From assembly GCA_027492035.1 (NCBI GenBank), contig JAOZFT010000004.1, positions 64,001-128,000 on the forward strand: a stretch of DNA of 64,000 nucleotides, written 5' to 3'. Under the pieces are notes generated by a model. That model was not told the origin of the DNA, did not search any database, and saw nothing but the letters and a program-made list of their open reading frames with translations. Made by a program: the position numbers and the translations under genes. The stretch comes from Thermoproteota archaeon (GTDB taxonomy: Archaea > Korarchaeota > JAOZGF01 > JAOZFZ01). Shown here one piece after another: positions 52,300-58,597 of this stretch; positions within the stretch are counted from its first letter, which is position 1, and every line of letters begins with the position of its first letter.

Positions 52300-53412
52300 T
52301 TGTTTAGGATGACAGATTTATGTTTCATATCTAACAGTTTTCCTCCGGATAAAGTTGGCAGCAAAGAATATTACGCGTTTCACGTATACAACCGCGTAAA
52401 ACCAATTTGGGATGTAAAAGTAATAACTAAACATTGGTTATTAAAAATTCAAGATGAAAACGTTATCCAACTGGATTTCTGGAAAGTAAGAAAGATAGGA
52501 ACTTACCTCTGGGCTCATAAAGTAGCTAAGGTTTTGAAGGAACAAAACCCAAAACATGTTCATGCCTTCGATTTTAGATCAATTTATTCAGCTTATTTGA
52601 GCGGCTTAAATTTTTCAGGGACATTACACCATGAAGACATAAATTACATATCTAAACACTTTCTTCTCAAAAGAGTTTTTAGGAAATACTTTGAGAAAAG
52701 CGACAAGGTTTTCGTAACCAACTATAAATCGTTAAATCTTCTGAAGAATTCCTTTAAGGATATAACCGATAAACTTGAACTTCTACCTTTAGGAGTTGAT
52801 GCAAATAAGTTTTCTCCCTTTCAAAAGACCAACACTATAAAGAAAAGGCTAAGTCTAGGCGAGAATGTTATTTTGCACGTCAGTGGTGAACTAACCCAAA
52901 ACCAAGAATTAAAAAATTTAATTGAAGCATACCGTAAATTAAAGAAAGAAATAAATGTCTCTTTGCTGATAATAGGGAAACCCTCTGAGAGTTTCAAAGA
53001 TAAGTACAACCAACTTGTTAGAAACAGTCCCGACGTGACTTTCCTGGAATTTGTCCCTCACACAGAAATAAACAAGTATTACGCTTTAGCTGATGTTTTT
53101 GTTACCTTACCTTTAAAATATGACGGTGTGGGTTTGTCCATTCTGGAGGCAATGGCTTCAGCCACTCCTGTAATTTGTCCTCCTTCAGAAATCTATAAAG
53201 AAATGGGGGAGGAAAATATATTAACAGTCCCTAATGTAAAGGATGTTAAGGCACTAACAAAAATTCTAAAGGCTGTTCTAACAGATAAGAAATTCTCTAA
53301 AACATTAGGCTACAAGTCAAGGAAGTATGTGATGGAGAATTATACGATCGAAACAATGATTTCTAAGTTGTCAAAGTATTTTGAAGAGAAAATAAAAAAA
53401 GTGAAATCTTGA
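52300..53412 (+). CDS. Glycosyltransferase family 4
   Basis: LGVD..KF, ADVFV, DGVGLSILEAMASATPVI. Confidence 0.85.
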   Translation: MFRMTDLCFISNSFPPDKVGSKEYYAFHVYNRVKPIWDVKVITKHWLLKIQDENVIQLDFWKVRKIGTYLWAHKVAKVLKEQNPKHVHAFDFRSIYSAYLSGLNFSGTLHHEDINYISKHFLLKRVFRKYFEKSDKVFVTNYKSLNLLKNSFKDITDKLELLPLGVDANKFSPFQKTNTIKKRLSLGENVILHVSGELTQNQELKNLIEAYRKLKKEINVSLLIIGKPSESFKDKYNQLVRNSPDVTFLEFVPHTEINKYYALADVFVTLPLKYDGVGLSILEAMASATPVICPPSEIYKEMGEENILTVPNVKDVKALTKILKAVLTDKKFSKTLGYKSRKYVMENYTIETMISKLSKYFEEKIKKVKS

Positions 53413-53478
53413 AAGGCTACACCATATTTCATAACAAGGCTTTTCCGAAGCTAGAAATGCTCTAAGGAATTTAAAAAG

Positions 53479-55074
53479 TTAGGGTAAATATTTGACCATA
53501 TAAGCCCCCAAGTGTTCGTACCCTAGCCTTTTATAGTATAATTTTGTACCTAAAGCGCTTGTTACCAGAATTTTCTCTTTACGGTGCTTTTCACTTATTT
53601 CTTCAGCTAAAGATAAAAGCTTCTTTCCTACACCCTTATGCTGGTAAGCATTTTTTTTCTTGGCACCTACAGGAATCATCTCGCCATAAACATGCAGCTC
53701 ACGAACTAACGCTGACTTACCCCTTATCTCCCACCTGAAAACCTTTGAAGAAGGAAATCTGAGCCTAAGAAAACCTACCAATGCGTCCTCTAACTTAGCC
53801 GTTAAAAAGAATTCACGCCCCCCCGAGGCTTCATAACTAGTTATTTCATAACTTATTTCACAGGAACCTTCCTTTTTCTTCTTCAAACGACCTATTTCAT
53901 TACATCTTATGCATTTGCATCTTAACCCCTTTTCATCCATGTATTCCTTAATAAGTTGTCTTAAATTGCTTTTCTTAACACCAGCTGCTATTTCCGGTGC
54001 TGGGATGTCACGTTGAACCCGCATTATCCGCACCCAAGGCGGAACTAAGGATTTTATTGCAGCAATTACTTCAATTGCAGTTTCTAAACTGTAAGGGATG
54101 TACACCCCCTCTTTCCAAAGGGTATAAAGCTTAGTTCCAGGAATAACCAAGGTGGGGTAGATCTTTAACATGTCAGGTTTAAATTTCTCATCCATGAATA
54201 TTTCCTTCGCCATTGAAACATCCATCTTAGGAGTTGAACCAGGTAAACCAGGCATGATATGGTAACATACTTTTAAACCGGAGTCTTTCAGTTGTTGAGT
54301 GGCTTCATAAACATCCTTTACTCCATGTTCCCTATTTATCAAGGAGTATATTTCATCATAAATGGTTTGTACACCTAATTCAACCCTGGTAACACCTAAT
54401 TCCAGCATTAAGTTTATATGTTCCTTTTTTGAATAATCAGGCCTTGTCTCCACAGTTAAACCAACATTTCTTATTTCACTTGACTCAGCAAGCCTTTTTG
54501 TTTCCTCTAGCGTCCTTCCTATTTTATTATTTAAAGCGTCTAAACATTTTTTCACAAACCCCCTTTGATAATTTCTTGACATTGCAGGGAAAGTGCCTCC
54601 CATAATAATTAGTTCAACTTTGCTTACGGTATGTCCTATGGAGGATAATTGCTTTATACGCTGTTTAACTTGCATGTAAGGATTGAATTCGTTTTGAATT
54701 GCCCGCATAGCTGCTGGTTCTTTGCCTGTATAGCTCTGAGGAACGTCGCCAAAAATCGAACTAGGTCCTCCAGGGCAATAAATACATGGTTTATCTTTGG
54801 GACAGGGGAAGGGATGAGTCATAACTGCTATAACATTCACGCCTGAAAGACTTCTGACATTTTTTATCCTCAACAAGTTTTTAAATTGAAACAGCCCCCT
54901 CTTTTCCATGTAGGAGATAATCTCTGAATTTTTGGGGACCCTTCTCAAGTTTAGCCTTTTAGCTACCTTAATCTTTAATTTATTAAGTTGAACAGGGTCC
55001 ACAGTTCCTGAATTGGGAATTTCTTTCAACAATTCTTCAGAGAAAACATTTGTGGACCAGAGGGTGTTTTCCAA
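53479..55074 (-). CDS. elp3: Elp3 tRNA uridine(34) acetyltransferase (radical SAM plus GNAT)
   Basis: CPKDKPCIYCPGG, QSYTGKEPA, ETRPD, RVQRDIP, VRELHVYG, QHKGVG. Confidence 0.95.
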   Translation of the reverse strand: MENTLWSTNVFSEELLKEIPNSGTVDPVQLNKLKIKVAKRLNLRRVPKNSEIISYMEKRGLFQFKNLLRIKNVRSLSGVNVIAVMTHPFPCPKDKPCIYCPGGPSSIFGDVPQSYTGKEPAAMRAIQNEFNPYMQVKQRIKQLSSIGHTVSKVELIIMGGTFPAMSRNYQRGFVKKCLDALNNKIGRTLEETKRLAESSEIRNVGLTVETRPDYSKKEHINLMLELGVTRVELGVQTIYDEIYSLINREHGVKDVYEATQQLKDSGLKVCYHIMPGLPGSTPKMDVSMAKEIFMDEKFKPDMLKIYPTLVIPGTKLYTLWKEGVYIPYSLETAIEVIAAIKSLVPPWVRIMRVQRDIPAPEIAAGVKKSNLRQLIKEYMDEKGLRCKCIRCNEIGRLKKKKEGSCEISYEITSYEASGGREFFLTAKLEDALVGFLRLRFPSSKVFRWEIRGKSALVRELHVYGEMIPVGAKKKNAYQHKGVGKKLLSLAEEISEKHRKEKILVTSALGTKLYYKRLGYEHLGAYMVKYLP

Positions 55075-55296
55075 TTCTATATACCCCTAAATTTAATTAG
55101 TTTGGGAAAGGATAGTTTATTAGGGGGAGAGAGAAACTTTAATAATATTCTTTTAAATTCTCCTTAGCCTTTCATGGGAGTAGAGGAAAAAAGGCAGGTT
55201 TACTTACGTTACTTTTTTAAGGTATACCTTTATATTTTTAAACATTGAAGGAATTTTATGGAAGGGAAACGTGAGCATGGGATTTCTTTATTGCTT

Positions 55297-55326
55297 CTCT
55301 CCTTTTTTTTAAAAAAAAAGGGAGAG
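55297..55326. repeat. Near-perfect inverted repeat CTCTCC-T8/A9-GGGAGAG in the elp3/rps30e divergent intergenic region
   Basis: Directly visible dyad symmetry; function unknown. Confidence 0.6.
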
Positions 55327-55393
55327 TGAATGAAAAAGAGTAAAGGGTGAGAAGACTTTCTGCAGGTTAAAATTTTGAGGAGGTGATACTTTT

Positions 55394-55575
55394 ATGCCAA
55401 GAGGCAGCCACAGGTTTTAACCGGCTAGGGCAGCTTGGCAAAGGCAGGAAAGGTTAGAAAAGCTACTCCTAAGGTTGAAGGGAAAAAGAGACGCAGTCCC
55501 CCAGCTAGGGTAAGAAATAAAAGAAATTACATTAAGAGGGTGTTATTGAAAAGAAAAATTGGTCAACCTAAGTAG
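55394..55575 (+). CDS. rps30e: Ribosomal protein eS30 (S30e), join(55394..55411,55429..55575), 54 aa
   Basis: GGAGGTGA RBS 7 nt before ATG; spliced product MPRGSHGSLAKAGKVRKATPKVEGKKRRSPPARVRNKRNYIKRVLLKRKIGQPK matches the eS30 signature HGSL.KAGKVR..TPK; lies upstream of nop5. Confidence 0.92.
55412..55428 (+). other. Candidate 17-nt bulge-helix-bulge mRNA intron (AGGTTTTAACCGGCTAG)
   Basis: Canonical BHB geometry; contains in-frame TAA; removal restores frame and conserved motif. Confidence 0.88.
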
Positions 55576-55609
55576 GGAAGATCCAATTAAAAGACTAAGT
55601 AGGTAAAAA

Positions 55610-56788
55610 TTGAAAATGAAAGCTTACCTAACTGTTTCACCATTGGGAGTGTTAGCAGTAAATGAAAAAAAGGAAATAATTCTAGTTAAGAAATTAAAGG
55701 GGGATATAAACCAAGTAACGGACAAATTTATCTCTTTTTTAGAAAAAAGGACACTTACAGAACTCAATAACGCCTTAGAAGAATTACTAGATATGGGATA
55801 CCGAGAAATAAACATTGAAGAGAGGGAACCTGTAAAGGTAAAGGAAGAAATTAAGGGAGTCATAAAATATAGTATACCAAATAAAGCTGGTTTATTGTTT
55901 AGAAGATATTTCACGGCTTTATCAGTTGAAAAATTTGGTTTCAGAAACAAAAAGGAAGCAAGAAGACGCATTCGTGAAGTAAGTATAAGGGTTACGGTTT
56001 ATGGAATAAAGAAGGATAGATCCAGAAAGGATTTATCGATCATTCAAGCCATACATGTATTAGATGACTTGGAAAAAATGCTTAACTCCCTCTTTTTGAG
56101 GATAAAGGAATGGTACTCACTATACTTTCCTGAACTGTTTGATATATTAGAGTCTCAAGAATTAATAATCAAACTAATTTCCAAATTTAAGAAACCAGAA
56201 AAGATTAACCCACAAACCCTTAAGGAAGAATTTAATTTGCCATCAGAGATTATAAATAAAATAGCGAGTTCCATTAATGAAACTGTTGGGGCGAAGTTGC
56301 AAGAGAGAGACAGTGAGGTTATAGAGGAATTGATTCAGGAGTGGCTTTCTTTAAAAAAGTGCTATGATGCAGTGAGGGGCTACATAGAAGAGGAAATGCC
56401 GAAAGTAGCACCAAACACTTCTTCACTTACAGGGGCATTAATAGCTGCCCGGCTTATTTCGTCAGCAGGAGGGCTGGAATCACTTGCTAAATTACCCTCA
56501 AGCACTATCCAGTTATTAGGAGCTGAAAAAGCTTTATTCAGGTTTATAAGAGGAAAAGGTACACCCCCAAAACATGGAGTTATTTACCAATACCCTTTAA
56601 TAAGGAAGTCAAACAAGAAAGTAAGAGGGAAGCTAGCTCGTAAACTTGCTAACAAGATAGCCATTGCAGCTAGAATTGACATGTTTTCAGGGGGCAGAGG
56701 TGAAGGCAAGCTTCAAGAAAAATTTGTGAGAGAAATCAAAAATATTGTTAAGGAAGAAAGGAATGAAAGTAATAAACAGCAAATTTGA
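55610..56788 (+). CDS. nop5: C/D box sRNP protein Nop5 (Nop56/58)
   Basis: EWYSLYFPEL, APN...G..IAARLI, PSSTIQLLGAEKALF, PKHGVIYQ, RGKLAR. Confidence 0.93.
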   Translation: MKMKAYLTVSPLGVLAVNEKKEIILVKKLKGDINQVTDKFISFLEKRTLTELNNALEELLDMGYREINIEEREPVKVKEEIKGVIKYSIPNKAGLLFRRYFTALSVEKFGFRNKKEARRRIREVSIRVTVYGIKKDRSRKDLSIIQAIHVLDDLEKMLNSLFLRIKEWYSLYFPELFDILESQELIIKLISKFKKPEKINPQTLKEEFNLPSEIINKIASSINETVGAKLQERDSEVIEELIQEWLSLKKCYDAVRGYIEEEMPKVAPNTSSLTGALIAARLISSAGGLESLAKLPSSTIQLLGAEKALFRFIRGKGTPPKHGVIYQYPLIRKSNKKVRGKLARKLANKIAIAARIDMFSGGRGEGKLQEKFVREIKNIVKEERNESNKQQI

Positions 56789-57443
56789 GGGAATTTACTG
56801 GTTAAAAAAAGGTAAGAGAAAGTTCTTAGTAACAAAAAATTTAGTGCCTGGATTTAGAAGCTGTAATGAAGAAATAGTTTATGTAAATGGTCGAGAGTAT
56901 AGAGTATGGGACCCTTACAGGTCAAAAGCTTCTGCAGCGATACATAAAAAGGTAAAAGAGTTTCCTGTGAAGGAGGGGGACCTAATACTCTACCTTGGAG
57001 TAGCTTCTGGTACCACAGCGTCTTATTTAAGTGACATTATTGGTGAAGAGGGAGTCATCTATGGAGTTGATTTCTCAGCTTCAGCTTTATTACCATTAAT
57101 CCAAATTGCAAGGAAAAGGGAAAATATTGTTCCTTTACTCGCAGATGCAAGAACTCCTTCACGGTATATTAACTTCGTCGAAGAAGTTGATGTGGTGTAC
57201 TGCGACGTTGCGCAACCTAACCCTACTAGTATTGTGTCGACTAATTCAAATCTTTTTTTGAAAGAGTCAGGTTATGTACTGCTTGCTATAAAAGCCAGCA
57301 GCATCGATATTTCAAAAAAACCTAAAGAAGTGTACCTAGAAGAAGAGAAGAAGCTGAAAGAGACGGGTTTTGAAATAATTGACTCAGTGAATTTAGTGCC
57401 TTACCATAAGAAACATGCTTTCCTTCTCTTGAAAAGGAAGTAA
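56763..57443 (+). CDS. flpA: Fibrillarin-like rRNA/tRNA 2'-O-methyltransferase
   Basis: EYRVWDPYRSK, LYLGVASGTTAS, DARTP, DVAQPN; probable ATG 56763. Confidence 0.95.
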   Translation: MKVINSKFEGIYWLKKGKRKFLVTKNLVPGFRSCNEEIVYVNGREYRVWDPYRSKASAAIHKKVKEFPVKEGDLILYLGVASGTTASYLSDIIGEEGVIYGVDFSASALLPLIQIARKRENIVPLLADARTPSRYINFVEEVDVVYCDVAQPNPTSIVSTNSNLFLKESGYVLLAIKASSIDISKKPKEVYLEEEKKLKETGFEIIDSVNLVPYHKKHAFLLLKRK

Positions 57444-57460
57444 ATTTAGAGAAAAGAGAC

Positions 57461-58597
57461 ATGAAGCTTAAACTTTATAAGGAGGGAAAAGTTTTCTTCT
57501 TTGCTTCCCAAGGAGAACTTAATTCCTCCGCACCTGTTTTCTATAACCCGAAAATGAAACAGAATAGAGATTTCACAATATTAGTGGGAGCATGGCTTAG
57601 GAAAGAAAAGAAAAAAGGAATAAATTATTTAGAGCCATTATCAGCTTCTGGAGTTAGAGGGTTAAGGTTTGCAAAAGAAATTGAGGCCTCTAAAGTAATT
57701 ATTTCAGACAAGAAAAAGACAGCTTACCAAGTAATGCAGACGAACATCAAAATAAATGAGTTGGAAAGTAAAGTAACTCCTTTCAATTTGAAGGCAATTA
57801 CCTTAATGGAAATACTTAAAGAAATGATGTTCTGGTTTGATTTAGTTGACATAGACCCTTTTGGTTCACCAATCTACTTTGTTGAAGCTGCCTCAGCTAT
57901 TCTTAAAAGGAGAGGAGTACTAGCGGTTACAGCTACGGATTTAGCCACTTTACAAGGTGTTAAACCTGAAACATGTTTTAGAAGATACGGAGTAATGCCT
58001 TATAGAACAGATTATTCTAAAGAACTTGGTCTGAGAGTATTAATAAGTTCAGTAATTTTACGAGTCTCTCCCTCTGAAATATTTCTGGAACCTATTCTGT
58101 CCTTTGCAGGTAAGCATTACTACAGAATTTTCTTTCAAGAGGTGAAAGGTTTCAATTATAAGAGATGGGGTTACAATCTCTACTGCAAAAGTTGCTTATG
58201 GAGAGGAACAACCTCAATTGAAGAGAGTCACTACCATAAATGCCCCAATTGTGGAGGGAATATAAAGGTTATAGGGCCATTATGGTTAGGCCCTCTGGTA
58301 TCGTGCAACTTAATTGAAAAATTAAAAGAAATGCTTAGAAATTTTCGATATATAGAAGATAGAGAGAACCAAAAGTTGCTTAGTTTGTTAAGTCAAGAAT
58401 GTTCAGCCCCTCCTTTCTATTTCGATCTTCATTCTTTTTCGTCTAGAATAAGAGTCTCTCCACCAAACATCGAAGAAACAATGCTTAGGGTTAAAGAGCT
58501 AGGTTACTCAGCCTACAGAACCCATTTCTCCTCCACTGCAATAAAATCAAACATTGGCGCAAAGGACTTGACTGAATTGTTACGAAGGAGGAATTAA
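57461..58597 (+). CDS. trm1: tRNA (guanine26-N2)-dimethyltransferase Trm1
   Basis: VFYNPKM..NRD, SASGVRGLR, DIDPFGSP, TATD, GPLWLG, RTHF. Confidence 0.93.
   Translation: MKLKLYKEGKVFFFASQGELNSSAPVFYNPKMKQNRDFTILVGAWLRKEKKKGINYLEPLSASGVRGLRFAKEIEASKVIISDKKKTAYQVMQTNIKINELESKVTPFNLKAITLMEILKEMMFWFDLVDIDPFGSPIYFVEAASAILKRRGVLAVTATDLATLQGVKPETCFRRYGVMPYRTDYSKELGLRVLISSVILRVSPSEIFLEPILSFAGKHYYRIFFQEVKGFNYKRWGYNLYCKSCLWRGTTSIEESHYHKCPNCGGNIKVIGPLWLGPLVSCNLIEKLKEMLRNFRYIEDRENQKLLSLLSQECSAPPFYFDLHSFSSRIRVSPPNIEETMLRVKELGYSAYRTHFSSTAIKSNIGAKDLTELLRRRN

Follow-up and report, generated by a model that had tools for sequence, protein, structure and literature searches.

Watanabe reportedly described an intron in the pre-mRNA of cbf5 of Crenarchaeota in 2002. 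Since then cbf5 has been the one archaeal gene with introns in its coding sequence that are cut by an endonuclease. The canonical archaeal motif is a pair of 3-nucleotide (nt) bulges separated by a helix of 4 base pairs (bp), according to the available text of PMC2724299, and cleavage takes place between the second and third base of each bulge (PMC2738675, in its accessible part). In 2020 cbf5 was named the sole earlier archaeal example when a new case, an intron in the 5′ untranslated region of HVO_1309, was added (PMC7714728, as far as the available text goes). The subject here is the gene for ribosomal protein eS30 (rps30e) in a 64,000-nt stretch of DNA, referred to as the window, from a Thermoproteota archaeon of the Korarchaeota (GCA_027492035.1, contig JAOZFT010000004.1). 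An original prediction, made from the letters alone, held that this gene is split by a 17-nt bulge-helix-bulge intron. The analysis below favors, with a probability of about 0.78, a genuine endonuclease-spliced intron in the coding sequence of the sole eS30 gene, after codon 6, and this would extend the kind of intron known from cbf5 to another host gene.

The likeness to the cbf5 introns of Crenarchaeota (Yokobori 2009, PMC2738675, in the part available) lies in a coding-sequence intron bounded by a bulge-helix-bulge, with the cut of the splicing endonuclease EndA falling between the second and third bulge bases. Like the candidate in eS30, the cbf5 introns are short (15–33 nt in the phylum studied here, 23 nt in this genome) and break the frame or carry a stop. 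The host of the cbf5 intron is a pseudouridine synthase, whereas here it is a ribosomal protein, and the eS30 intron is placed beside the start codon. Most crenarchaeal cbf5 motifs are called ‘unconventional’ in the accessible text of PMC2738675, whereas that of eS30 is a strict hBHBh′. The cbf5 introns are widespread, and their splicing has cDNA support in that literature, whereas the eS30 intron is predicted in one genome.

Archaeal tRNA introns, at position 37/38 and at non-canonical positions, share geometry, enzymes and size range with the eS30 intron. The latter differs in lying in an mRNA without a tRNA body, in having an exon helix of coding sequence, and in showing no sequence similarity to the rest of the genome: a blastn-short search of the genome with the 56-nt motif region returned the region itself and matches of at most 15 nt, with no donor tRNA intron. 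In Haloferax volcanii the splicing endonuclease likewise cuts the HVO_1309 mRNA at bulge-helix-bulge sites; the intron there belongs to the 5′ untranslated region rather than to coding sequence and has support in vivo and in vitro (PMC7714728, available part). The original prediction had taken cbf5 to be the only well-established archaeal mRNA intron, a statement that stands for coding sequences but has to be widened for mRNA overall to include the HVO_1309 leader (PMC7714728, in the same part of the text). HAC1/XBP1 splicing by IRE1 and RtcB is also spliceosome-independent, with a small frame-changing intron, a protein endonuclease and an RtcB-type ligase, and differs in its endonuclease, in its recognition structure, where eS30 has a motif of the EndA type, and in its regulation by stress, of which the eS30 locus gives no sign (PMC13149111, accessible text); the comparison is an analogy of logic only, not one of family membership. 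No report of an intron in rps30e or S30e was found in the literature covered by a search that left most subscription journals and supplementary intron tables outside, and in the two texts where ‘S30e’ and ‘intron’ occur together the terms are unconnected.

The features of the eS30 locus are the following, positions being those of the window.

55379..55386, + strand: Shine-Dalgarno-like GGAGGTGA, read directly in the sequence, 7 nt 5′ of ATG 55394.
55394..55411, + strand: exon 1, six codons (MPRGSH) by translation, the residues being the first six of the intronless ortholog in G002, a genome of the same order and a different family.
55412..55428, + strand: predicted bulge-helix-bulge intron of 17 nt, placed by the cut rule applied to the fold, by alignment with G002 and by the best score in a profile test.
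55429..55575, + strand: exon 2, 48 eS30 codons and a stop at 55573-75, by translation and a PF04758 match.
55395..55440, + strand: the whole hBHBh′ fold, in both the minimum-free-energy and the centroid structure.
55435..55575, + strand: an alternative open reading frame (ORF) of 46 codons from TTG, a rival reading and the one that a gene caller would report.

The frame opened by ATG 55394 reads MPRGSHRF and ends at TAA 55418-20; it thus comprises the six exon codons and two more within the insert. From 55429, in another frame, a 48-residue eS30 body begins with GSLAKAGKVR and runs to its stop. By itself exon 2 scores 35.2 bits against PF04758 (Ribosomal_S30), where the cut-off is 27, and 34 bits in the genome scan. 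TAG 55426-28 closes the exon-2 frame at its 5′ end and lies 3′ of the exon-1 stop at 55418-20, both stops being inside the insert. Since the exon-1 stop is upstream of the point at which the exon-2 frame opens, no simple frameshift joins the two frames. In the unspliced DNA the PF04758 match begins at profile position 4, compared with position 2-3 in 38 other genomes of the phylum, and a contiguous N-terminal H-G-S-L-A-K-A-G-K-V-R block appears in the product only once 55412-55428 is removed. The genome (93% complete, 42 contigs, 1.87 Mb) has one PF04758 match, from which eS30 is single-copy. The ribosome-binding site, the interrupted MPRGSHRF frame and the displaced remainder of eS30 had all been predicted, and the translations agree to the base; the single PF04758 match leaves the genome, as far as assembled, without the intact second rps30e that the original prediction had named as a refuting observation. 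The prediction that gene callers would miss or truncate such a gene is consistent with a search of 5.8 billion proteins, in which this eS30 had no self-match.

In RNAfold the minimum-free-energy structure of 55390-55450 (-20.3 kcal/mol) and the centroid structure are both the hBHBh′ motif, reproducing exactly the fold that had been drawn from the letters. The exon-exon helix pairs 55395-401 with 55434-440 over 7 bp and is followed by a 2x2 AG/AG internal loop and then by 2 bp, 55404-05 with 55430-31. The central helix of 4 bp joins 55406-09 to 55423-26 and is flanked by 3-nt bulges on opposite strands at 55410-12 and 55427-29; on the intron side a 3-bp helix with a UUUA loop closes the hairpin. 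The fold thus has the two opposite 3-nt bulges around a 4-bp helix that define an EndA substrate, together with both flanking helices, h and h′. The exon-exon helix has the U of the start codon as its first paired base and, according to RNAfold, persists as a 7+2-bp hairpin after removal of the intron. Such a hairpin could influence initiation on the precursor and the mature mRNA alike.

Cleavage behind the second bulge base on each strand, the rule for EndA, takes out exactly 55412-55428, 17 nt, and alignment to G002 implies the same boundaries. In G002 the eS30 gene is uninterrupted, lies upstream of Nop5 as it does here, and has its own ATG with GAGGTGA just 5′ of it. The predicted spliced product and the G002 ortholog are identical in their first 16 residues; over the 18 nt of exon 1 there are three synonymous and no non-synonymous differences. 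Only three of the nine exon-exon pairs of the present genome are pairable at the same positions in G002, and the differences are all synonymous. The codons that form the exon helix belong to the minor ones of the genome's own usage (GGC 12%, AGC 12% and TTG 14%, from 431 long open frames). By comparison with G002 the exon helices appear to have been tuned through synonymous changes, and this is the closest available approach to covariation.

The junction was also scored against a profile built from 60 distinct eS30 orthologs, which include G002 and had been found in 70 of 100 loci searched. Among all 125 in-frame, stop-free junctions near the site, the junction given by the motif ranks first with 70.2 bits. 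The runner-up scores 69.2, a junction shifted by one base 65.2, and the ORF starting at TTG 54.8. Both the restoration of ...SH|GSL... by the cut rule, in agreement with protein conservation, and the poorer fit of a one-base shift had been foreseen; the first is seen in the G002 match as well as in the ranking. The profile test is corroboration rather than proof.

The genome encodes the enzymes that such an intron would need. EndA, RtcB and a split cbf5 are all on contig C9, the contig of the window, as is every gene used in the analysis. EndA (C9:442896-444032) is a protein of 378 residues with two endonuclease units, matching PF01974 twice and PF02778. In the best matches among solved structures its C-terminal unit resembles the catalytic subunits of Crenarchaeota, and its N-terminal unit the structural subunits of Crenarchaeota and nanoarchaea; it looks like a natural fusion of both subunits of the heterotetrameric type. 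RtcB matches PF01139 with 578 bits.

In the same genome cbf5 is split between two frames by a 23-nt bulge-helix-bulge intron (C9:310022-310044). Applied to it, the cut rule gives back GTLD|PNVTGV. The junction falls between the first and second letter of the catalytic Asp codon, where the crenarchaeal cbf5 introns also sit (PMC2738675, accessible part). In the phylum of 43 genomes cbf5 was matched in 41; in 17 of these the match is split or has an internal stop there, and in all five of the loci checked (G001, G002, G027, G010 and G026) a motif of 15–33 nt obeying the cut rule restores the conserved block. The single genome of this phylum known in 2009 is given as free of a cbf5 intron in the available text of PMC2738675. 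By these sequence comparisons cbf5 introns are common in this small phylum and sit where the crenarchaeal ones do. Evidently, therefore, one mRNA or more of the lineage is spliced by the EndA/RtcB machinery, including introns down to 15 nt, and the predicted cbf5 intron is an internal positive control for that of eS30.

Short introns are also predicted in the tRNAs. ARAGORN places introns of 6–54 nt in 28 of 36 tRNA calls of the genome, and 2 of 5 short ones checked have strict 3-nt bulge geometry at the length that ARAGORN gives. The placement of the tRNA genes is uneven: 35 of the 36 are on C9 (666 kb), and none is on six other large contigs totaling 647 kb. The tRNAs lacking elsewhere may be split or contain several introns and so escape prediction, contigs may break at tRNA genes, or the binning may be at fault.

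In the mechanism favored here the pre-mRNA would fold into the strict hBHBh′ motif, and the fused two-unit EndA would cleave both bulges behind their second base (55411|55412 and 55428|55429). RtcB would then join the 2′,3′-cyclic phosphate and 5′-OH ends. The mature mRNA would encode a 54-residue eS30 with the conserved N-terminal ...SH-GSLAKAGKVR..., and unspliced mRNA would give only a peptide of eight residues. We infer cutting and ligation in the cell from the motif, its boundaries, the G002 ortholog, the single copy, the enzymes and cbf5. The proposal of a 17-nt intron for EndA and RtcB, which formed the core of the original prediction, held up in silico at each of these points: the junction matches G002, the gene is single-copy, both enzymes are encoded on the contig, and cbf5 serves as the control.

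How often such a motif arises by chance was estimated by scanning both strands of the 1.87-Mb genome for intron lengths of 12–130 nt. Over 3.74 million positions and 119 lengths there were 8776 motifs of equal or better quality, or about 2e-5 for each combination of position and length; for length 17 in the strict register the count was 27, about 7e-6 per position. The energy of the eS30 fold has a z of only -1.99, so stability by itself proves little; it is the geometry at fixed boundaries that exceeds chance. A first scan for interrupted genes reduced 166,733 lenient matches to 4275 by an ORF filter, and in 8 of these, eS30 among them, the motif is still present when the local sequence is folded to minimum free energy. 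A second scan took 57,656 matches, folded 1698 and retained 36. Among the matches inspected, eS30 and cbf5 alone had frame-restoring motifs in both scans together. A genome-wide scan of frameshifted genes had been put forward as a check on the intron, and it recovered these two, the other matches inspected being attributable to chance. The scans are insensitive, the first having missed cbf5 and neither having recovered the tRNA introns, and more mRNA introns are possible.

Several other candidates were rejected as chance. Among those of the second scan, C14, C20, C21, C31, C9:220651 and C9:25520 have an ORF that is continuous in another frame or give an unrecognizable product. Six further ones, from the first scan, lie inside continuous ORFs or have no recognizable product.

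At all other loci examined the eS30 gene is uninterrupted. Within the phylum of 43 genomes it was detected in 39, the 38 others being contiguous, and four were without a match. A metagenome scan with exon 2 gave at least 70 relatives, 42–70% identical, and all 70 of those listed are uninterrupted and keep H-G-S-L. The number of other eS30 loci without an interruption is therefore 108 of 108 (38 phylum genomes and 70 metagenome relatives). The search of 5.8 billion proteins gave three matches of about 68% identity, none with the intron, and no close relative. In a sample of 401 genomes of a second phylum, centered on G043, there was a match in 384, and the best 150 matches listed all begin at profile position 2-3; weak or split matches may be among the 243 others. 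The original prediction had suggested that related rps30e loci be aligned for the presence of the intron, and none of the 108 others has it. The intron was probably gained after the split from the family of G002.

Several points weigh against a spliced intron. It occurs in one genome only, the 38 phylum genomes, 70 metagenome loci and three protein matches being without it, and the sequence is a metagenome-type assembly of 42 contigs. Splicing is inferred from the DNA sequence, and a search for sequencing runs covering 53400-57500 of the window listed no run and no holder of RNA data. The sole genome of the same family, G001, is uninformative: its contig G001:C199 ends inside Nop5 where eS30 would follow, and given that contig end the failure of both the family profile and a protein query to find eS30 in G001 does not show that the gene is absent. 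As to the motif, the exon helix adjoining the central helix has only 2 bp before the 2x2 loop, and the fold energy is unexceptional (z = -1.99), with 11 of 200 shuffles folding equally well or better. The margin in the profile test amounts to 1 bit, and the profile contains G002. The break of G001:C199 at the place of eS30 could, speculatively, reflect population heterogeneity.

Among the alternatives the one that survives best, itself unlikely, is that the 17 nt come from faulty assembly or sequencing, or were inserted very recently and inactivated the gene, which would then be really uninterrupted or a fresh pseudogene. It draws on the 42-contig assembly, on the restriction of the intron to one genome, and on apparent errors in relatives such as a frameshift in the Nop5 of G002 beside an A-rich stretch. 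Against this, a random insertion of 17 nt would form a strict motif whose cut sites coincide with the ends of the insertion in about 1e-5 of cases. The exon codons on either side are adapted to pairing, both between themselves and with the insert, and eS30 has a single copy here and occurs in nearly all genomes of the phylum.

It is less probable still that there is no splicing and that translation starts at TTG 55435, giving an eS30 of 46 residues from which the N-terminal H-G-S-L is missing. The open frame of 46 codons exists and scores 54.8 bits against the eS30 profile, but the spliced product scores higher, at 70.2 bits. The TTG has no Shine-Dalgarno-like sequence before it, whereas ATG 55394 has a strong one. 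A start there would also lose H-G-S-L, the most conserved block, which is kept in G002 and in 70 of 70 metagenome loci listed, and the 38 other phylum matches begin at profile position 2-3. Finally, the preservation of exon 1 at the protein level relative to G002 would be ignored and the motif left without an explanation.

Lower again in credibility is cutting by EndA without rejoining, the motif being an element for mRNA decay or silencing. Cleavage without productive ligation is conceivable and would call for the same shape of motif. The organism would then have no eS30 from its only gene copy, however, and exact restoration of the frame and of a conserved motif would be unnecessary in a decay element; moreover, RtcB is encoded. 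The weakest alternative, translational bypassing (hopping) or frameshifting across the gap without RNA splicing, can be set aside as scarcely credible: the GGCAGC repeat flanking the gap (55403-08 and 55429-34) with a hairpin between loosely recalls the bypassing of T4 gene 60, but the order of the stops, 55418-20 before TAG 55426-28, rules out a simple +1 or -1 shift, a hop from AGC to AGC would delete the conserved H-G-S, and the structure has the specific shape of an EndA substrate, used by the same genome in cbf5.

The neighboring genes in the window are these.

55616..56788, + strand: Nop5/Nop56, the downstream neighbor (PF01798, PF21572).
56745..57443, + strand: fibrillarin, a context gene (PF01269, E = 2e-83).
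53479..55074, - strand: an Elp3-like radical SAM/GNAT protein, the divergent upstream neighbor (PF04055, PF16199, PF23613, PF00583).

The order eS30 then Nop5 is common to this genome and G002. In the latter, the Nop5 gene (L104, G002:C17, about 1430-1600) shifts frame beside an A-rich stretch, and two TGA stops are read through. The appearance is that of a frameshift introduced by sequencing; a programmed shift is possible. The 320-nt divergent spacer between the Elp3-like gene and eS30 contains a near-perfect inverted repeat, CTCTCC-T8/A9-GGGAGAG, at 55296-55326. A search of the window with Rfam gave zero matches at gathering score; near the locus there were only matches with E of at least 0.3, which were treated as noise, and those overlapping the inverted repeat were likewise at noise level.

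A broader proposal goes beyond the spliced intron itself. A recent, lineage-specific gain of the intron, datable through the intronless G002 and followed by synonymous tuning of the exons, may have made EndA and RtcB necessary for producing a ribosomal protein, with splicing as a gate that couples the supply of a small-subunit protein to the capacity for tRNA and rRNA processing. Two features would allow such a gate: the exon helix begins at the second base of the AUG, and without splicing the mRNA would yield a peptide of eight residues only. We regard the proposal in this complete form as doubtful.

The favored reading, an endonuclease-spliced intron in the eS30 coding sequence, would have consequences of its own. 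For annotation it is a warning, since genes of this kind are dropped or truncated by gene callers. It offers an independent and testable case, with an intronless ortholog for comparison. If it is true, eS30 would be the second host gene for a coding-sequence intron of this type in archaea, bearing a strict textbook motif in a ribosomal protein gene, and EndA and RtcB could maintain coding introns more generally.
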